This document shows, piece after piece, positions 48-11,259 of a DNA stretch of 12,502 bases. Position 1 is the first letter of the stretch. Each line of letters begins with the position of its first letter. Under the pieces are notes generated by a model. The model had not been told where the DNA came from. It did no database searches and was given only the letters and a program-made list of their open reading frames with translations. This DNA comes from a virus. The stretch is taken from the UHGV virus genome UHGV-1789726, one strand, 5' to 3'. Made by a program: the position numbers and the translations under genes.

Positions 48-81
48 CCAGCGCCTTTGTCAATCAATGGTGGCTCAGGCG

Positions 82-174
82 GGGGCTTCTTCGGAAGCGC
101 CGGTATCCTTCAGAGCCGGTTACGCCAACCCTGTCTGGGCTACCACCAGCGAAATTGGCGTTTCCGGTGGTAGC
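82..174 (+). promoter_or_regulatory. Structured 5' leader: UUCG-tetraloop hairpin (stem 85-89/94-98) and a 9-bp-stem hairpin (139-147/166-174)
   Basis: GCTTC-TTCG-GAAGC at 85-98; GCTACCACC (139-147) pairs with GGTGGTAGC (166-174) across an 18-nt loop. The 180-aa ORF called across this region has no RBS and low-complexity translation. Confidence 0.3.
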
Positions 175-203
175 GTAACCTGCTATCTGAAGGAGGCTGC
201 CAC

Positions 204-398
204 ATGCTGGCTACTACCCCTACCCAAAAAACGCAATTTATCTGGATTATCGCCGCAGTTCGCCGCGATTGCCCGACAATTACCGCCAAAATTCATCATA
301 TTGCTGCCGAGTCTGAACGCGATGCTCGCCGTTCTCTGGTGCGCGATCACATCTGCTTTTTTGCTGGTCGTATCCGCATGGAGGTGGCACATGATTAA
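204..398 (+). CDS. Small early protein, Icd/Kil-like (host cell-division inhibitor family of P4-type prophages), 64 aa
   Basis: AGGAGG at 191-196, 7 nt before ATG 204. Translation (FIWIIAAVRRD...RRSLVRDHICFFAGRIRMEVAHD) resembles Icd-like proteins from memory, unverified. Stop overlaps next start (ATGATTAA). Confidence 0.55.
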   Translation: MLATTPTQKTQFIWIIAAVRRDCPTITAKIHHIAAESERDARRSLVRDHICFFAGRIRMEVAHD

Positions 399-2221: not shown

Positions 2222-2585
2222 AAATGTAGAAATGGCGCTTAGCTCCGCAATCGGAGAGCAGGTGGCAAAGATTGCTGGTGCTGTGTGGATTCATAACCTT
2301 CATTCTACTGGTGAAGAGAAAATGGCAATTCAGACGCCAGAGGGACGCACCATTACTACATCTCTGAAGCCGTCAGATGTTTGTGATCTGATTTGCGCAT
2401 TCATGTACCCAGCAATGAGGACTGTCCACGGCGATAAGTGGAAACTTGCGACAACCGCTGAATTTGATATGTGGCTAAACAATGATGGCATGCTGACTGA
2501 TTACGGAATAACCAAGTGGCAGATGCTAGTTAGCCATATCGCAAACGCTATAGACCACGTGGGGTACGGTGATGCGAAACATTGA
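2214..2585 (+). CDS. Hypothetical protein, 123 aa
   Basis: GGGAGG before ATG 2214; start overlaps previous stop; stop overlaps primase start. Confidence 0.65.
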   Translation: MRENVEMALSSAIGEQVAKIAGAVWIHNLHSTGEEKMAIQTPEGRTITTSLKPSDVCDLICAFMYPAMRTVHGDKWKLATTAEFDMWLNNDGMLTDYGITKWQMLVSHIANAIDHVGYGDAKH

Positions 2586-5328
2586 TCTTATCCGTCAGGT
2601 TATCAGTGCGTCTGAAAACAACTGGCCTCATGTGCTGGGCTGCCTGAACATAAATGTCCCTGACTCTCCGCGCCGTCATGCTCCCTGCCCTGCATGTGGG
2701 GGCAAAGATCGATTCCGGTTCGATGACAACGGGCGCGGTAGCTTCATCTGTAATCAGTGCGGCGCTGGTGATGGGCTGGATTTAATTAAACGCGTAAATA
2801 ACTGCGACACAACAGAGGCGGCGCTTCTTGCCGCTGATGTTCTGGGTATTGATTACCGGACAACGGAAACACCAGAAGCCACCAGCCAGAAACGGGAACA
2901 ACTGGAAACCGAGCGCCAGCGACGCGAACAGGAGCGCCTGAAAAGGGCAGAGAAGGACGAACAACAAAGACGGGATACGTTTTCCCGTCAGTTTGATGAC
3001 ATGCGCAGAAAGGCTGTAAACGGCAAATCTGATTATCTGGTTGCGAAAGGGGTAGGTGATTTTACATTCCCCGTGTTGCCCGATGGATCTCTGTTGCTGG
3101 CGCTGGTGGATAAATCCGGCGCAGTAACAGCAGCACAGACTATTACCTCACATGGTGAAAAAAGACTCCTGACAGGTTCAGCAAAGCGAGGGGCATATCA
3201 CGCCATAAACGCACCAGAAACAACACAGAGCATCTTAATCGCAGAAGGGCTGGCAACGGCATTATCTGCCCATTTAATGCGTCCAGAGGCGCTGACAGTG
3301 GCGGCGATTGATGCCGGGAACCTGTTATATGTCGCCCAGGTACTGCGGGATAAATTTCCTTCAGCACAAATCATCATTGCTGCGGATAACGACCACAGCG
3401 AAGGAAGACAAAACACGGGGAGAATAGCAGCAGAAAAAGCAGCTTTATCTGTTTCTGGATGGGTGGCATTACCCCCGACAGATCACAAAGCAGACTGGAA
3501 TGATTACCACCAAAAACACGGCATTAAATGCGCCACAGAAGCGTTCAATAAGTCAATGTACCAACCACAGGGTAATGGCGTGAAACAGGAGCCACAGACC
3601 ATTGAGGGAAGCGATTTTAAGGTTATGGATACCGATCCACTGAAACCAAGAATAGAAAGCCGCGAGGATGGTATTTATTGGGTATCTCCGAGAGCTGACA
3701 GCCAGAGTGGAGAAATCATCAATAACGAAAGCTGGTTATGTTCTCCGTTAAGCGTTATCGGTACTGGCAGAGACGATAAAGACCAGTATCTCATTCTTCG
3801 CTGGCTGTCGTTTGGTTCTGAAACGCCGACAACCGCTGCCATTCCACTGGCTGATATTGGTGAACGTGAAGGATGGCGCACACTTAAAGCTGGTGGGGTA
3901 AATGTCACGACCAAAAGCAGCCTCAGAGCAATACTGGCAGACTGGCTACAACGCAGTGGCTCTCGTGAATTGTGGCGTGTTGCTCATGCCACTGGCTGGC
4001 AATGCGGAGCGTACATCATGCCTGATGGGGAAATCATCGGAACACCTGAAAATCCTGTGCTGTTCAGCGGGAGAAGCTCAGCCGCAGCCGGATATACCGT
4101 CTCAGGGAGCGCGAAAAGCTGGCGTGATAACGTGGCGCGTCTGGCCTTTGGTAACTATTCAATGATGACCGGGATCGGCGCAGCACTGGCAGCGCCATTG
4201 ATTGGGCTGGTGGGCGCTGACGGGTTCGGCATTCATTTCTATGAGCAGTCGAGCGCAGGTAAGACCACCACGGCAAACGTGGCGAGCAGCTTATACGGCA
4301 ACCCTGATTTACTGCGGCTGACGTGGTACGGAACCGCGCTGGGGCTGGCAAATGAGGCCGCCGCCCACAATGACGGACTAATGCCGCTTGATGAAGTTGG
4401 TCAGGGCGCTGATCCTGTCAGCGTTTCACAGTCTGCCTATGCGTTATTTAACGGTGTAGGGAAACTGCAAGGCGCTAAAGATGGTGGAAACCGGGATCTA
4501 AAACGCTGGCGTACAGTGGCAATCAGCACCGGAGAAATGGATTTAGAAACATTTATCGCTACTTCCGGGCGAAAAACCAAAGCCGGGCAACTGGTGCGAC
4601 TGCTGAATATTCCGTTGAGTAAAGCAGTACGCTTTCACGATTACCAGAACGGAAAACAGCACGCAGACGCACTGAAAGACGCTTACCAGCATCACCACGG
4701 CGCGTCCGGGCGTGAGTGGATTAAATGGCTGGCAGACCACCAGCAACAGGCTATTAAAACCGTTCGTGACTGCGAAAGCAGATGGAGAAGCCTGATCCCA
4801 TCCGATTATGGTGAGCAGGTTCACCGTGTAGCCGCGCGATTTGCCATTCTGGAGGCCGCATTGTTGTTAGGCGAGGTTGTAACAGGCTGGGATGCTCAGA
4901 CATGCCGTGATGCGATACAGCACAGCTATAACGCATGGTTGCGCGAGTTCGGCACAGGTAACAAAGAGCATCAGCAGATTATTGAACAAACGGAGGCATT
5001 TCTTAATGCCTATGGGCTTAGCCGTTTTGCACCATTTCCATACAGCCCGGCAGATTTGCCCATCAAAGATTTAGCCGGATACCGTCAGCGTGGAGAACAT
5101 GACGAAAGCCCAATGATTTTCTACACATTCCCGGCCACATTTGAAAAGGAGATCGCATGTGGTTTCAACGCAAAACAGTTTGCTGAAGTGTTGAAAAAAG
5201 CCGGGATGCTAACCCCACCAAACAGCGGTCGTGGATACCAAAGAAAATCACCACGTATTCAGGGACGACAAATAAACGTTTATGTACTCAATTACCAGCC
5301 AGGAGATTACAACTCATCTGAAGAATGA
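2572..5328 (+). CDS. Primase-helicase (P4 alpha / PICI Pri-Rep type): N-terminal zinc ribbon, TOPRIM, C-terminal P-loop domain; about 918 aa
   Basis: CPACGG...CNQCG zinc ribbon (nt ~2686-2766); TOPRIM signature with IAEG Glu (nt ~3244) and AADND (nt ~3385); SSAGKTT P-loop (nt ~4258). ATG 2572 preferred over the track's GTG 2569. Confidence 0.9.
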   Translation: MRNIDLIRQVISASENNWPHVLGCLNINVPDSPRRHAPCPACGGKDRFRFDDNGRGSFICNQCGAGDGLDLIKRVNNCDTTEAALLAADVLGIDYRTTETPEATSQKREQLETERQRREQERLKRAEKDEQQRRDTFSRQFDDMRRKAVNGKSDYLVAKGVGDFTFPVLPDGSLLLALVDKSGAVTAAQTITSHGEKRLLTGSAKRGAYHAINAPETTQSILIAEGLATALSAHLMRPEALTVAAIDAGNLLYVAQVLRDKFPSAQIIIAADNDHSEGRQNTGRIAAEKAALSVSGWVALPPTDHKADWNDYHQKHGIKCATEAFNKSMYQPQGNGVKQEPQTIEGSDFKVMDTDPLKPRIESREDGIYWVSPRADSQSGEIINNESWLCSPLSVIGTGRDDKDQYLILRWLSFGSETPTTAAIPLADIGEREGWRTLKAGGVNVTTKSSLRAILADWLQRSGSRELWRVAHATGWQCGAYIMPDGEIIGTPENPVLFSGRSSAAAGYTVSGSAKSWRDNVARLAFGNYSMMTGIGAALAAPLIGLVGADGFGIHFYEQSSAGKTTTANVASSLYGNPDLLRLTWYGTALGLANEAAAHNDGLMPLDEVGQGADPVSVSQSAYALFNGVGKLQGAKDGGNRDLKRWRTVAISTGEMDLETFIATSGRKTKAGQLVRLLNIPLSKAVRFHDYQNGKQHADALKDAYQHHHGASGREWIKWLADHQQQAIKTVRDCESRWRSLIPSDYGEQVHRVAARFAILEAALLLGEVVTGWDAQTCRDAIQHSYNAWLREFGTGNKEHQQIIEQTEAFLNAYGLSRFAPFPYSPADLPIKDLAGYRQRGEHDESPMIFYTFPATFEKEIACGFNAKQFAEVLKKAGMLTPPNSGRGYQRKSPRIQGRQINVYVLNYQPGDYNSSEE

Positions 5329-6090: not shown

Positions 6091-6552
6091 ATGGAACTAA
6101 AATTTATTGATAACCCTGTGCGATTACAGGCCTTTCTTAACGAGCCAGGCAATACCGAAAATATTGTTGAGCCGGGGCACACGTACTACATCAAGCCTGA
6201 TGCGGTATATCTCGGCATCTACGAAGGATTAGTGCTGGCTGGCGTTCATGAAGTGCGTAACTTCTGGCATAGCGTTGTTGAATGCCATGCGGTGTACGAC
6301 CCCGGATTCCGTGGTGAATATGCACTGCAAGGACATCGATTATTCTGCAAATGGCTTCTCGAAAACTCACCATTCCTTAACAGCATCACTATGGTTCCTG
6401 ACACCACGAAATACGGACGGGCAATTATCCGTTTGCTTGGCGCTACCCGTGTTGGTCACCTTGATGATGCTTATATCAGATGTGGTAAACCCGTCGGCGT
6501 AACGCTTTATCAGTTAACTCGGCAACAATATAAGGAATTCAGCGAATGTTAA
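6091..6552 (+). CDS. Hypothetical protein, 153 aa; first gene of the four-gene cassette
   Basis: Long ORF, non-repetitive sequence; stop overlaps next start (6546). Confidence 0.7.
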   Translation: MELKFIDNPVRLQAFLNEPGNTENIVEPGHTYYIKPDAVYLGIYEGLVLAGVHEVRNFWHSVVECHAVYDPGFRGEYALQGHRLFCKWLLENSPFLNSITMVPDTTKYGRAIIRLLGATRVGHLDDAYIRCGKPVGVTLYQLTRQQYKEFSEC

Positions 6553-7223
6553 TTACCCATATAGCTCATAAACATCTCAATCGTGCCGTATACGAAAAAG
6601 GCGGTGATGGTGGTGCCTCTAAAGCTCAGGCGAAGGCCCAGCAGCAGGCAATTGATTTGCAGCGCGAGCAGTGGAATACGGTGATGAATAATCTCAAGCC
6701 GTATGCAGAAGTCGGATTGCCTGCTTTACAACAACTACAAGGACTGATGACTCTGGAAGGGCAGAATAAAGCCGCGAATGATTTCTTTGGTTCTGGTTTA
6801 TATAAAACACAGGCAGATCAGGCCCGTTATCAGAACCTTGTCTCAGCAGAAGCTACCGGGGGGCTTGGCTCAACAGCTACCAGTAACCAGTTATCTTCCA
6901 TTGCGCCCATGCTTTATAACAATTGGCTTAGTGGGCAAATGCAAAATTATGGAAACCTGCTAAATGTCGGGATGAATGCGGCATCAGGGCAGGCAACGGC
7001 AGGGCAAAACTACGCCAATAATACCGGACAACTCTTGCAGGGGCTTGGCGCTATTCGTGCAGGTCAGGCGCAGCAGCCATCCAGTCTTGCGCGTGGTATT
7101 GGTGGGGCAGCATCAGGCGCTTTAGCGGGTGCGCAACTTGGTTCCGTTGTTCCTGGAATAGGAACTGCGGCCGGCGCTATTGGTGGTGGGCTTATTGGTC
7201 TTGTTGGGGGGCTTGGATTCTAA
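6546..7223 (+). CDS. Q/N/A/G-rich protein, 225 aa, with C-terminal glycine-zipper hydrophobic segment; internal-virion/ejection-protein-like
   Basis: AAGGAA 9 nt before ATG 6546. C-terminus GIGGAASGALAGAQLGSVVPGIGTAAGAIGGGLIGLVGGLGF (nt ~7083-7220). Stop overlaps next start (TAATG). Confidence 0.75.
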   Translation: MLITHIAHKHLNRAVYEKGGDGGASKAQAKAQQQAIDLQREQWNTVMNNLKPYAEVGLPALQQLQGLMTLEGQNKAANDFFGSGLYKTQADQARYQNLVSAEATGGLGSTATSNQLSSIAPMLYNNWLSGQMQNYGNLLNVGMNAASGQATAGQNYANNTGQLLQGLGAIRAGQAQQPSSLARGIGGAASGALAGAQLGSVVPGIGTAAGAIGGGLIGLVGGLGF

Positions 7224-8542
7224 TGGCGACATGGCAACTTGGCGGGCTGCCTAGCATGGCACCGCAAAATGATAATGCTCCTCGTTCTTCCGTTCCTCAG
7301 CCTGTGCAGTATCAGCAGCAGCCAAACGTAGGTTTAATGGCGCTACAGGGGCTAAGAGGCGTTGCTGAGATTAATCAGCAGGCGCAAATTTCCCAGCAGC
7401 TAAAAGAATATCAGGCACGGTTGGGTAGTGCGGTAGCTAATAATGATCGTGTTGGCGTGCAGAAGTTAATGGCCCAGTATCCCCAGTTTATGGCTGATTC
7501 TCAAAAACAGATGGGATTCATTGATGCTGAGCAAAATCGGCAGACCGCTGACGCTGCCATGAATCTGCGTCTTGCGTCACAAACTGGAGATCCACTGACC
7601 ATGCAGAAGGCCATTCAGCAGGCAAATCCAGTATTACAGCGATTTGGTCTTCCTGCTGAAGAGGTTTATCAGTCTTGGCAGAATGACCCACAGGAATTCA
7701 ACAGAATCACTGACCTCATCCACCTCCATGCTGATCCAAATAGTTACTTTAGTGTTCAAGAGAAGCAGCAAGGGCAGAGTATTGCACAGCAGAACGCAGA
7801 TACATCTGCATATAATGCTCAGGTTAATGCGGAGCAGGGTAATCGGCGGCTCGATATGGAGCAGTTCAAAGTCCTATCCGATAACCAACTACGCACGAGA
7901 GAAATGGTTCTGAAAGCACGACTTGGACGTGCTCAAAATGACATCGAGAGAGACAAGCTCAATGCTGAACTGAGCAAGGTACAGCAGGCGAAAGTGGAGA
8001 AGATGAACGATAAAATTAATACTGTTGCAGGTAATATCGACTCCTTGAACTCTGCGCTTGAAGTGGGTCATGAACTGGCGGGAATTGTAGGGAAACATCC
8101 TTCGGCCGTTACCCGTTCGCAGAACTATAACCCCCTGACGCTGGGGTTTGGATTCCTCCCTGATGTAGCAGAAGACACACGAAGCCTACGCGCCAAAGCT
8201 GATGAATACAACCTAAAGGTTATTCTGCCTAGCCTAAAAGGTACTTTTGGCTCTAACCCAACCGAAGGGGAAAGGGCTGCCCTTATGCAATCTCAAAATG
8301 GCATTAAGTCAGCAACCAGCAATGAGGCATTTTTGCGAGAGTTGAATAAAGCGCAGGACGTAATTATTCGAATGCAGAAACGACAGATTGCCGGGCTCGG
8401 TATTCCTGTAACCAAATCTAAGGACGAAGAAACTGATACCAAAATGCTGTTGCAGGATCCTTCACTGGTTAAGGATTATGTGACCGCACATGGCTATCTG
8501 CCGGAAAGTTACTATCAGGCAAAACTTAAGGGATGGCAATGA
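7223..8542 (+). CDS. Gln-rich, predicted helical/coiled-coil protein, 439 aa; internal-virion/ejection-protein-like
   Basis: Long ORF coupled at both ends; Q/A/N-rich composition. Confidence 0.8.
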   Translation: MATWQLGGLPSMAPQNDNAPRSSVPQPVQYQQQPNVGLMALQGLRGVAEINQQAQISQQLKEYQARLGSAVANNDRVGVQKLMAQYPQFMADSQKQMGFIDAEQNRQTADAAMNLRLASQTGDPLTMQKAIQQANPVLQRFGLPAEEVYQSWQNDPQEFNRITDLIHLHADPNSYFSVQEKQQGQSIAQQNADTSAYNAQVNAEQGNRRLDMEQFKVLSDNQLRTREMVLKARLGRAQNDIERDKLNAELSKVQQAKVEKMNDKINTVAGNIDSLNSALEVGHELAGIVGKHPSAVTRSQNYNPLTLGFGFLPDVAEDTRSLRAKADEYNLKVILPSLKGTFGSNPTEGERAALMQSQNGIKSATSNEAFLRELNKAQDVIIRMQKRQIAGLGIPVTKSKDEETDTKMLLQDPSLVKDYVTAHGYLPESYYQAKLKGWQ

Positions 8543-11259
8543 TGGCACAACTGACAGAAAAACAGAAAGCCTATTCCCGTCATCTCGATGAAAAATATGG
8601 TTTCCCATCAGGGACGATGGAAACATTAGTTGGCAATGAATCTAGTGGTAACGGAAGTGCCGAGTCACCGAAAGGAGCTAGAGGATTTGCTCAACTGATG
8701 CCCTCAGTAATGAGTGATGCTGGTTATCGTGGAACAGATCCGCGCTCACTGCCATTTGAAAAGCAAATGGATATCGCAGCAAACCATCTCAATAAAGGAA
8801 TGAAGCGATTTGGTGATATAGGTATGGCATTGGCTGGGTATAATTCTGGCTATGCTCGTATTAATGCCGTAAGAAACGGTAAATCTACACTGCCAGATGA
8901 AACGGCTAATTACGTAAGTAAATTTGCAGATGCCGGAATAATCCCTGATGACAGTGAAATCTTGCAGTTTGCACAAACCAGTCAACATCGCAATCTTCAG
9001 CAGCCTGACTACTCAGAGCTTGATAAAGAAATCTCTCAGGTGGGAGATATTTCTGCATGGGAAGCAAAACGTCAGCAATTTAAGAACATAGAAGCAGGAC
9101 TACCAACAGCCAGTTCATGGGAGCAGAAAAGAGCTCAGTTTCTCGCCGATGAAAATGCCGGGGAACCGCAGCAGCAAGTAGCCAAGTCTAACCTTAATCC
9201 TGAGATGGAATATCTTTCGCCAGGACTGAAAGCTGCGCCAGAGCAGATGGCCAGAGGGATTGCTAATATACCGTTTGATGTAATGGACGCAGGCGTGGGG
9301 GTAGTCAATGCGGCGCAATCAGCCGGAGCATGGGCAGCTCAGAAGCTTGGTGTGGGTGATGGCACATACACGCCCATATCACCTGTCTTTCGCCCAGTAG
9401 ACCAACCTACAGATCCATACGCGCAGGCTGGTGAGCAGCTAGCACCTTACCTTATTACAGGATTAGGTGCAGGAAAGGCAGCTACCGCAGCTTCTTCAGT
9501 TGCCAACGCTCCACGTGCTGAACGTGCGGCCACAAAGGTGGCTAGTATGTTGGCAGAAAACCTGCCAGGTACATTGGTGAACGCCCAAAAGAACGGGCAG
9601 ATCAGCCCAGAAGACCTAGCAAAAGAGACAGGTATTGGCCTAGCAGGATCGCTAGGAGCACGCGCTTTAATAAAGAGCGGACAGACAGCCAGTGACGTAA
9701 TGCGAGATGTATTGCGGAGTAATACAAATCAATCAGGCCATGTGTTAGGGGCAGCAAATACTCTGGAAACCGCCAATGATGTATCGAAAGCAGCGCGTTC
9801 TGCCGTAGGCCGAGAGCATATCGCATCGCAGGCATCAAACGTCAGAGATGATGTCGCTAAGGCGGCGAAAATCACTGGTATTAATATCAACACCCTGACG
9901 CCTGGAATGCGCTCAGGTAGTCGTGGAATTGCCCAAGCAGAAGGTGTTCTGGCATCAACTCCTGGGAATGTTCAGGATGCTCACCTTACGGCCTTCAATG
10001 AAATATCCTCAAAGTTGAATAAGCAGTTGTCTGATTTCGGTGCTGAGTCTGGAAGCGCATCAGAAAAAAGCGCAGCAATTAAAGAGCGCATCATCGCGAG
10101 CCTCAGTGATATGAAAACAGCAGAGAATATGGCATGGGCAGAACTGCGAAGCACGATGCCACGCGAAAGGATGAAAATGAGTAATGGGATGGCTGTCGTC
10201 CAAGCAGAAAAAGCAGCCAATGTTCCACTCAGCCCGGAGATGAAACAGTTTCAGGCTGCCAACAACCAAGGTGGCGGCATAACCTTCGACGGGATGAAGG
10301 CATGGCGTGCTAAGTTTGCTGATGCTGAACAAGCAAACACCCGGGCAGGTAAGGCCAATGCCGCCCGGATTGCCGGAGAAATGCGCAGAGCTATCACTGA
10401 TGACATGCGCATCATGGCTGAAAAAGGAAACTTCCTCACAGAATGGCAGAAAGCTAACGATCTCTCTAAAAGTTACATTATCGCCAAACAAAATGCCGAA
10501 TCTGTTTTTGGTCGAGATCTCGCATCAGACGCTATGGTAAGAAAAGGTGCCGATACGCTTAAGGCATCCGCAAACACTGGAACTGGAGCTTTTCACCGTC
10601 TTATCTCCGCGCTGCCGGAAGCAGAACGCCAACCAGCAATAGCATCTATTCTTCAGCATGCTGTGGCGCAGGGAGAGAAGGGAGGAATCGGTGAAGAGTC
10701 TGGTATCCAGTATTTTGCCAAGCTCATGACCCAGCAGAATGTAAACGCCATCAGTCGTCATGCGCCAGATCTCGGTAGAATGATGAAAGAGTTCGGTGTA
10801 CTCGCTAAAGCCAGCACCAGACCGCAGCGATACGTAGAGCGCACGGGAAGAACAACTGAGGCTCTCAAAACGCTCGATTCAGGCCTTCCAAAGATCGTCG
10901 GCGTGATTATGAACGGAGTTCAACAGTCAGGTGCGATCGCTGGAGGCTTTGGCGGTGGTGTAATTGGTTCGATTAGTGGTTTGGTTGCTGGTGGCGCGCT
11001 GAGAAATACTGTGGCTAAGATTGGGGCGACAAGAAGTGGTAGGTATGCGATAGAGAAAGCCGTTCAGGAAGCTACAAAAGCAGTGCGCGCAGGGGCATCA
11101 CCAGCAGCGATCGCCGCAGCAGAGAAACGATTTTCGGCCAATAAAATTGCCATGAAAGCAATTCGTGATGCCGTTGGGGCTGAAGAATTCGTGAAACTGA
11201 CAAGGGCCGGGATTGTAGCTACCCTCAGTGGCATGAAAGATGTTAGCGAATGGGAATAG
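8533..11259 (+). CDS. Large protein, 908 aa, with N-terminal family-1 lytic transglycosylase (SLT) motif set and a glycine-zipper segment near the C-terminus
   Basis: Motifs E-S (GNESSGN, nt ~8638), G-x-x-Q (GARGFAQLMP, nt ~8692), A-Y-N-x-G (ALAGYNSGYA, nt ~8839); GAIAGGFGGGVIGSISGLVAGGA at nt ~10900-11000. Start may be 8533, 8539 or 8542; AAGGGA at 8526-8531 favours 8539. Confidence 0.85.
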   Translation: MAMMAQLTEKQKAYSRHLDEKYGFPSGTMETLVGNESSGNGSAESPKGARGFAQLMPSVMSDAGYRGTDPRSLPFEKQMDIAANHLNKGMKRFGDIGMALAGYNSGYARINAVRNGKSTLPDETANYVSKFADAGIIPDDSEILQFAQTSQHRNLQQPDYSELDKEISQVGDISAWEAKRQQFKNIEAGLPTASSWEQKRAQFLADENAGEPQQQVAKSNLNPEMEYLSPGLKAAPEQMARGIANIPFDVMDAGVGVVNAAQSAGAWAAQKLGVGDGTYTPISPVFRPVDQPTDPYAQAGEQLAPYLITGLGAGKAATAASSVANAPRAERAATKVASMLAENLPGTLVNAQKNGQISPEDLAKETGIGLAGSLGARALIKSGQTASDVMRDVLRSNTNQSGHVLGAANTLETANDVSKAARSAVGREHIASQASNVRDDVAKAAKITGININTLTPGMRSGSRGIAQAEGVLASTPGNVQDAHLTAFNEISSKLNKQLSDFGAESGSASEKSAAIKERIIASLSDMKTAENMAWAELRSTMPRERMKMSNGMAVVQAEKAANVPLSPEMKQFQAANNQGGGITFDGMKAWRAKFADAEQANTRAGKANAARIAGEMRRAITDDMRIMAEKGNFLTEWQKANDLSKSYIIAKQNAESVFGRDLASDAMVRKGADTLKASANTGTGAFHRLISALPEAERQPAIASILQHAVAQGEKGGIGEESGIQYFAKLMTQQNVNAISRHAPDLGRMMKEFGVLAKASTRPQRYVERTGRTTEALKTLDSGLPKIVGVIMNGVQQSGAIAGGFGGGVIGSISGLVAGGALRNTVAKIGATRSGRYAIEKAVQEATKAVRAGASPAAIAAAEKRFSANKIAMKAIRDAVGAEEFVKLTRAGIVATLSGMKDVSEWE

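Follow-up and report, generated by a model that had tools for sequence, protein, structure and literature searches.

What does the hairpin-rich leader that precedes the first gene of this locus do? The stretch of DNA analyzed here (the window, 12,502 nucleotides of UHGV virus genome UHGV-1789726) had been read in a first-pass annotation as carrying three successive hairpins between a TATAAT and an Icd/Kil-like gene, and the region was likened to the CI RNA immunity region of phage P4, where complementary leader segments lie before kil. When the whole window was compared with Rfam, the one match obtained was to the C4 family (RF01695) at positions 63-150 of the plus strand, with 79.9 bits (gathering score, 45) and an E value of 9e-15. 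The match covers the full-length model (positions 1-87 of 87), and the same RNA scores 97.3 bits with a covariance model built in this analysis (R1). Using BLASTN against phage genomes, positions 64-225 were found to be 71% identical over 162 nt to 8347-8506 of P4, which is the old "cI/ash" ORF, i.e., the CI-RNA/kil leader. Weaker matches were obtained to the "immunity regions" of SfV, N15 (cA), 2H10, Ayreon, and Stx phages. The P4 CI region itself scores 74.9 bits as C4, and a search for tRNA and tmRNA genes with ARAGORN returned none. The c4 misc_RNA annotated in P1 (77 nt) occupies alignment columns 7-85 and was aligned with the window column for column using R1; from this register, the mature RNA is predicted to extend from 69 to 147 (79 nt). 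On these grounds, 63-150 is assigned as a genuine C4/CI immunity RNA whose targets lie downstream, carried by a P4-like/PICI-like island. This kind of element has been described before and belongs to an ordinary, well-known family of small antisense RNAs.

The minimum free energy (MFE) of 63-150 is -46.4 kcal/mol (z = -4.8), and the z-score of the longer segment 54-210 is -5.9; for both segments, none of 200 shuffled sequences matched the native value. The hairpins proposed earlier are all present, but the arrangement as three tandem hairpins was wrong, and the predicted fold is a tRNA-like structure of three helices. The UUCG hairpin was found exactly where it had been placed, at 85-98 (hairpin 1, GCUUC-UUCG-GAAGC, with 5 bp closing the tetraloop), and the CCGG-closed hairpin, formerly bounded at 100-119, extends from 99 to 120 (hairpin 2, a GCCGG/CCGGU stem with a 12-nt loop). 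Both appear in the MFE structure and in the Rfam model. The dominant element, overlooked in the first reading, is a closing, acceptor-like stem of 17 bp that surrounds these two hairpins; its 5' arm is at 68-84 and its 3' arm at 129-145. The 3' arm is followed by CCA at 146-148, which gives a tRNA-like ACCA end at 145-148. No U-run terminator was found after any hairpin in 63-203.

A comparative set was assembled by scanning viral contigs for the pattern GCCGGTATCC-N6-9-CCGGT and filtering the hits with the covariance model. Of the 120 loci that matched the pattern, only 29 were true C4 RNAs by the model, and the others were dropped as chance matches. The 29 added members gave 28 distinct RNAs. 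Across these 28 sequences, the 27 pairs of the C4 fold are paired in 99.2% of cells, with changes on both sides at 12 pairs (94 cells). None of 500 shuffles reached a comparable value, and control helices slid out of register were 29-49% paired. The closing stem is 99.8% paired and 8 of its 17 pairs have changed on both sides, as have 4 of the 5 pairs in hairpin 1, while the stem of hairpin 2 is essentially invariant. C84 and C85 are also invariant in this alignment (A2). The folding and covariance analysis that had been proposed for this region thus found conserved base pairing with compensatory stem changes.

The RNA carries two putative specificity elements, and each has an exact complement a short distance downstream. 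The b' element (UCCUUCAGA, 106-114) lies in the loop of hairpin 2 and is the 9-nt complement of b2 (TCTGAAGGA, 186-194). The a' element (ACGCCAA, 122-128) lies in the unpaired junction and is the 7-nt complement of a2 (TTGGCGT, 155-161). The two targets correspond to the first (a2) and second (b2) halves of the P4 seqC, and the position of a2 is that of the annotated a2 in P1. The b2 site overlaps the Shine-Dalgarno sequence AGGAGG at 191-196, which serves the ATG at 204. The energy of the b'/b2 duplex is -14.2 kcal/mol, a value equalled by 0.2% of shuffled leaders. Second copies of the targets, a1 (L002 5948-5954) and b1 (L002 5964-5971), lie 16 nt apart in the isrK-like leader upstream of the window.

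Among the 28 sequences there are 12 types of b' and 10 types of a', and both co-vary with their targets. The full cognate complement, 9 nt for b' or 7 nt for a', is present in 25 of 28 sequences; noncognate b' matches do not exceed 6 nt. The cognate complements recur upstream as a1 and b1 across the homologues, and in 25 of 28 the last three nucleotides of a 9-nt b2 are the GGA of the Shine-Dalgarno sequence. This three-way covariation between the RNA, the upstream site, and the downstream site is the strongest evidence here for functional pairing. The covariation also shows that the element of the window has an immunity specificity of its own that differs from that of P4. The suggested search for complementary segments was therefore productive, with exact a'/a2 and b'/b2 complements and seqA/seqC-type sites that co-vary with the loops, and the comparison with a P4 CI-like immunity region ahead of an Icd/Kil-like gene is borne out by both the homology and the co-varying targets.

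Several further features of these elements were recorded. The types of a' and b' reassort freely, since 21 combinations of the 10 x 12 were seen across the 28 loci of alignment A2. The a' of the window is common to the phages SfV, 2H10, Ayreon, and sal3, and its b' is common to the homologous loci L067 and L107. It is conceivable that satellites and potential helper phages are partly cross-immune. Additional copies of TTGGCGT at 7012, 7452, and 10626 were considered as targets and set aside, as none adjoins a b-type site; the window holds five copies of this 7-mer against 1.8 expected, which is not clearly above chance (at least five in 8 of 200 shuffles). The palindrome CCGG occurs at 116-119, in the stem of hairpin 2, and again at 164-167, and the two copies flank a' and a2, so if hairpin 2 opens, the a'/a2 duplex could be lengthened past a 2 x 2 mismatch by 4 bp.

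The window cuts the immunity module in half, since the isrK/seqA leader with a1 and b1 ends at window position 1. This leader was recognized by a match to isrK (RF01394, 67.8 bits) at L002 5923-6000, corresponding to -77 to 0 of the window, and it contains an intrinsic-terminator hairpin at L002 5980-5994 followed by a T-run. Positions 1-62 of the plus strand are the spacer between the isrK/seqA-type leader RNA and C4, and they hold the TATAAT at 42-47 that had been taken as a possible promoter element. The hexamer is there, but a promoter role is unsupported; it has no -35 partner, it is kept only in the closest relatives, and a promoter scan of positions 1-800 of the window found none. A likelier source of the C4 precursor transcript is a candidate promoter, TTGCCG-18-TATGGT, that was located by alignment with P4 and lies upstream of the isrK-like RNA at approximately -115 to -87 from the start of the window and is conserved across the subgroup. 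The terminator-like hairpin lies between this presumed promoter and C4, so read-through would be required. The isrK-C4 tandem was also found in P4, SfV, N15, 2H10, Kpn74, Ayreon, and sal3, and in 276 phage records altogether. Spacer lengths were taken from the offsets of a1, as a measure based on the T-run was unreliable. IsrK and C4 have been described as structural homologues of the P4 seqA and CI RNA (Barquist et al., PMC3632133), and the Rfam C4 and isrK models match PICIs of Gram-negative bacteria (Mageeney et al., PMC10111431).

The third hairpin of the first-pass annotation, a 9-bp stem at 139-174, requires a different interpretation. Its arms, GCUACCACC (139-147) and GGUGGUAGC (166-174), are 9 nt each, they enclose a2 in the loop, and their pairing is conserved; it is an alternative helix, though, and not a third hairpin in tandem with the others. 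Hairpin 3 and the base of the closing stem are mutually exclusive because both use 139-145. The helix is missing from the MFE structure of 54-210 and is 8 kcal/mol less favorable when forced in the context of 63-210. Across the homologues it is paired in 98.4% of cells, with double-sided changes at 5 of its 9 pairs, and slid controls are 25-63% paired. It can be found in P4 as GCUAUCGCC/GGCGAUAGC (L001 1576-1611) and in P1 with 8 of 9 pairs and one mismatch (L131 512-541). When the whole leader of 293 nt is folded, hairpin 3 is present in both the MFE and the centroid structures. The MFE structure of this full leader is a long-range, cis-paired fold in which b' pairs with b2. Hairpin 3 is not part of the Rfam C4 model. 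We regard it as a real alternative helix of the unprocessed leader that may present a2 or compete with processing. A possible further hairpin, 169-175/181-187, abuts b2.

The gene that follows the leader, at 204-398 of the plus strand, encodes an Icd/Kil-like protein of 64 amino acids (NCBIfam NF033153, 70.3 bits) and would be the first gene regulated by the RNA. The protein is 40% identical to P4 Kil (E 9e-10), which belongs to the same family. A tblastn search of phage genomes with the 64-aa protein at an E value of 1e-3 gave no matches, the protein being too short. Between 207 and 389, the numbers of changes at codon positions 1, 2, and 3 of the icd-like gene are 15, 9, and 43, respectively.

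The same DNA is crossed by a second and much longer frame. The 180 codons at 67-609 of the plus strand are the C-terminal part of an ORF of 355 amino acids (L002 5542-6609) that begins 459 nt upstream of the window, where its ATG overlaps the stop codon of a DUF4222 gene. PGAP annotates this ORF as an 'ash family protein' (WP_016245737.1). It runs through the RNA module, crosses icd out of frame, and continues in frame into the next gene (391-609). The icd-like gene is out of frame with the long ORF because its ATG is at +137, rather than +138, from the AUG of C4. The 355-aa ORF has no Icd-like domain, and P4 eta (199 aa) has one. An icd gene that is out of frame in this manner (ATG at +137 or +134) was also found in L068, L090, L079, L006, and L119, and in these loci as well the ORF has no stop across icd and fuses to the next gene.

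No amino-acid-level constraint acts on the 180-aa ORF. In 67-203, the first, second, and third codon positions have 1.33, 1.54, and 1.47 changes per site, respectively, with no excess at the third. Variability in this segment follows the role of each nucleotide in the RNA, with stems at about 0.9 changes per site and loops and targets at about 2.0. Within icd, the third positions of the gene are the second positions of the long ORF, and the variation there consequently does not fall on the third positions of the ORF. Synonymous-type conservation across 67-390 had been named beforehand as the outcome that would count against an RNA; with the ORF free of amino-acid-level constraint across 67-203 and 207-389, and the pairing conserved, the opposite pattern was observed. 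The N-terminal part of the eta-like ORF differs too much between lineages, or is not homologous (nucleotide identity of 52-65%), to allow a codon-position test.

The frame is nevertheless retained. The AUG at positions 5-7 of C4 (window 67) is invariant in 28 of 28 sequences, and the frame that it opens is free of stop codons in 26 of 28 homologues, compared with 11 of 28 and 5 of 28 for the other two frames. In the homologues this frame usually remains open over a stretch that begins more than 200 nt upstream and reaches at least the end of icd. When the icd genes were resampled synonymously, the probability of an open frame across icd was 0.17, 0.18, 0.03, 0.04, 0.01, and 0.01 for six sequences that represent about three lineages. 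The earlier reading of the 180-aa ORF as probably noncoding is thus right with respect to the amino-acid sequence but misses that the frame has been selectively kept open, and the pattern suggests that it is kept open for the transit of ribosomes rather than for a protein. The 355-aa ORF corresponds to P4 eta and to Gifsy-1 orf45, both of which are reported to be translated for regulation (PMC10111431, PMC4825925). In P4, translation of eta from an upstream late promoter prevents termination (PMC10111431), and orf45 of Gifsy-1 is translated, with conservation of its nucleotide rather than its amino-acid sequence (PMC4825925). In the limited literature examined, no description of hairpin 3 or of the open frame from the C4 AUG was found.

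These overlaps have consequences for annotation, since a C4 RNA and an Icd-like gene are hidden under the 355-aa "ash family protein" call in E. coli genomes. The Icd-like gene is omitted where PGAP calls the 355-aa ash protein, and its annotation was seen only in a genome with 'ash' marked as a pseudogene. The Pfam family Phage_ASH (PF10554), which matches the translation at L002 5911-6237 (window 67-237) with 73-98 bits, is in effect the translation of the isrK, spacer, C4, and leader segments.

The surroundings of the module are those of a satellite island. Many E. coli strains have near-identical sequence (99.9%) in an island that adjoins tRNA-Thr and proA, and positions 1-700 of the window are matched in 1,114 of 5,426 complete genomes. 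The gene order in this island is integrase, alpA, a hypothetical gene, antA/B, DUF4222, the "ash family protein," small genes, a Toprim/DUF927 primase, and cargo. The Toprim and DUF927 primase (919 aa) is encoded at 2569-5328 on the same strand as C4. The primase operon is located 3' of C4 and the integrase and alpA genes are upstream; judged from this gene order, C4 would control the operon. Overlapping small ORFs at 391-609, 545-796, 793-1056, 1053-1274, 1162-1869, and 1880-2585 fill the region between icd and the primase and hold the position of P4 epsilon, orf151, and orf106; none was assigned to a family by comparison with Pfam and NCBIfam. Between 6091 and 11259, 3' of the primase, there are P22-type DNA-ejection genes, an unusual cargo for a P4-like/PICI-like satellite: a DUF2824 gene (6091-6552), a gp7 homologue (6546-7223), a gp20-like translocase (7223-8542), and an SLT-domain protein of 908 aa (8533-11259). 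Other strains have truncated versions or an IS3 insertion at the position of the ejection genes. A search of the downstream cargo with PADLOC found no defense systems.

Given the identity, fold, targets, covariation, and gene context observed for this locus, the module very probably encodes an immunity antisense RNA of the C4/CI type that belongs to a P4-like, PICI-like satellite island, with a mechanism modelled on that of P4. By this analogy, the RNA would most likely silence the E. coli satellite island by pairing with the ribosome binding site of the first gene in the replication operon. Transcription would start at a constitutive promoter of the PLE type, located shortly before window position 1, and give a leader composed of the isrK/seqA-like segment (a1, b1, and terminator), the spacer, C4, a2, b2 with the Shine-Dalgarno sequence, and the icd-like gene. 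The three-helix, tRNA-like C4 would be excised from this transcript by RNase P at U68/G69 and by 3' trimming to C147, leaving a stable RNA of ~79 nt. The a' and b' elements would then pair with a2 and b2 on nascent transcripts, and with a1 and b1 upstream. The b'/b2 duplex would mask the Shine-Dalgarno sequence and so prevent translation of the icd/kil-like gene, and the untranslated RNA would be exposed to Rho-dependent termination, which would turn off the Toprim/DUF927 primase operon. The island would be immune to elements that share its a'/b' specificity. Escape could be provided by an upstream promoter of the alpA operon, analogous to P4 PLL, with ribosomes translating the 355-aa eta-like ORF through the RNA module. 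In this scheme the processing, the action in trans, the Rho-dependent termination, and the role of eta translation are carried over from P4 and P1, and the a'/b' complementarities could also act in cis.

The co-varying hairpin 3, together with a frame that is open from the invariant C4 AUG in the absence of amino-acid conservation, leads to a more ambitious proposal. It suggests that translation through the RNA gene may pick the fate of the transcript, either processing to the repressor or refolding through hairpin 3 to an immunity-insensitive mRNA. The module would then be a ribosome-sensing RNA switch rather than only an antisense repressor. In addition, the freely reassorting a' and b' could form a combinatorial code of cross-immunity between satellites and helper prophages. 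We consider this proposal speculative and rather unlikely as a whole; if true, satellites and helper prophages that share one of a' and b' would be linked by the code.

The invariant AUG and the open frame can also be read in the manner of the IsrK-orf45-anrP module of Gifsy-1, where the short isrK-like RNA would act in trans to open an inactive leader and activate translation. What would be activated here is the ORF from the AUG at 67 and the gene downstream, and the C4 piece would mostly be a structured target or a by-product of processing rather than the repressor. The isrK match with an intact terminator directly upstream, and the long-range, cis-paired MFE structure of the full leader, are consistent with this, as is the finding in Gifsy-1 that orf45 is translated, and is needed for the expression of anrP, and that a processed species of ~80 nt (STnc1160) exists (PMC4825925). 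However, P4 is the nearest relative, both in sequence and in the genes around the module (a satellite island with icd/kil and a primase), and P4 genetics, as cited in PMC3632133 and PMC4825925, made CI the repressor and seqA/seqC its targets. The ORF of the window also differs from orf45 in that it runs past the start of the next gene. A mainly Gifsy-1-like role is improbable in our judgment, although the two modes are compatible with one another and not mutually exclusive.

Far less probable is a leader or attenuator that acts purely in cis, with the hairpins folding on the nascent transcript and the Shine-Dalgarno sequence sequestered there, so that no diffusible RNA is made. The conservation of hairpin 3 and the pairing of b' with b2 in the predicted fold of the full leader would be expected of such a device. 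The duplication of the targets on both sides of the RNA, the excisable tRNA-like fold with its ACCA end, and the absence of a U-run terminator after the hairpins in 63-203 speak against it, as does the trans-acting immunity of the P1 and P4 homologues (P1 record annotation; PMC3632133). That the region is simply protein-coding, with the hairpins incidental to an 'Ash family' domain in a protein of 355 aa, is scarcely credible: the Phage_ASH score, the PGAP call, and the frame open in 26 of 28 homologues favor it, but 67-203 has no third-position excess and varies according to RNA role, the stem changes are compensatory, and across icd the variation falls on the second codon positions of the ORF.

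The C4/CI-type repressor is thus our preferred reading. Recognition of the RNA pinpoints the immunity switch of the island and its likely specificity determinants, a' and b'. In other respects, the locus is a further allele of a well-studied system, and the alternative helix and the ORF kept open whatever its frame relative to icd are modest refinements.

Among the known systems, the island most resembles P4. The two share the nucleotide identity given above, the same C4 fold, and the order of an isrK/seqA-like leader, CI, seqC, an Icd-like Kil, small genes, and a primase. In both, the start of a long ORF coincides with the stop codon of the preceding gene, and its frame continues across the RNA module. 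In P4, a Rho-dependent terminator, timm, lies inside kil, and immunity is exerted in trans. The eta gene of P4 reportedly has three start codons, giving 197-199 aa, and Kil is said to have 65 aa (attributed to Forti et al. in 1999). The P4 sequence agrees, with ATGATGATG at L001 1240 for the 199-aa eta and an ORF of 65 aa at 1642-1836 with kil in frame. The a' element is ACGCCAA in the window and UUCUCAC in P4, and b' is CCUUCAGA in the window and CCUGUGAA in P4, and the targets match in every case. The spacer from seqA to CI is 45 nt shorter in the window element. Its icd/kil ATG is 1 nt closer, and for this reason the in-frame nesting of Kil in eta is absent; the eta-like ORF instead stays open across icd and is fused to the next gene. 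The primase of the window is of the DUF927 type (919 aa), and its island has more genes between alpA and the eta-like ORF.

The C4 RNAs of P1 and P7, the founders of RF01695, share the three-helix fold and the layout a1, b1, c4, a2, b2, and icd. In P1, b2 lies over the Shine-Dalgarno sequence of icd and is annotated as the site at which icd-ant translation is repressed, and hairpin 3 is recognizable there. The P1 RNA is more diverged, scoring 53.4 bits with R1 compared with 97.3 for the window. Its output is Ant, the antirepressor of a plasmid prophage, from the C1-controlled promoters P51a/b, whereas that of the window would be a satellite replication operon.

The modules of Gifsy-1 (IsrK-orf45(STnc1160)-anrP), lambdoid/Stx phages, SfV, and N15 cA have the same tandem of isrK and C4, and the conserved AUG at position 5 of C4 opens the same frame in Gifsy-1 and the phage modules as it does here. 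The lambdoid, Stx, SfV, and N15 modules differ in having a spacer of 24 nt and an antirepressor gene downstream. In Gifsy-1, orf45 stops at the start of anrP, and the molecule that acts in trans is the short IsrK RNA, which is an activator (PMC4825925).
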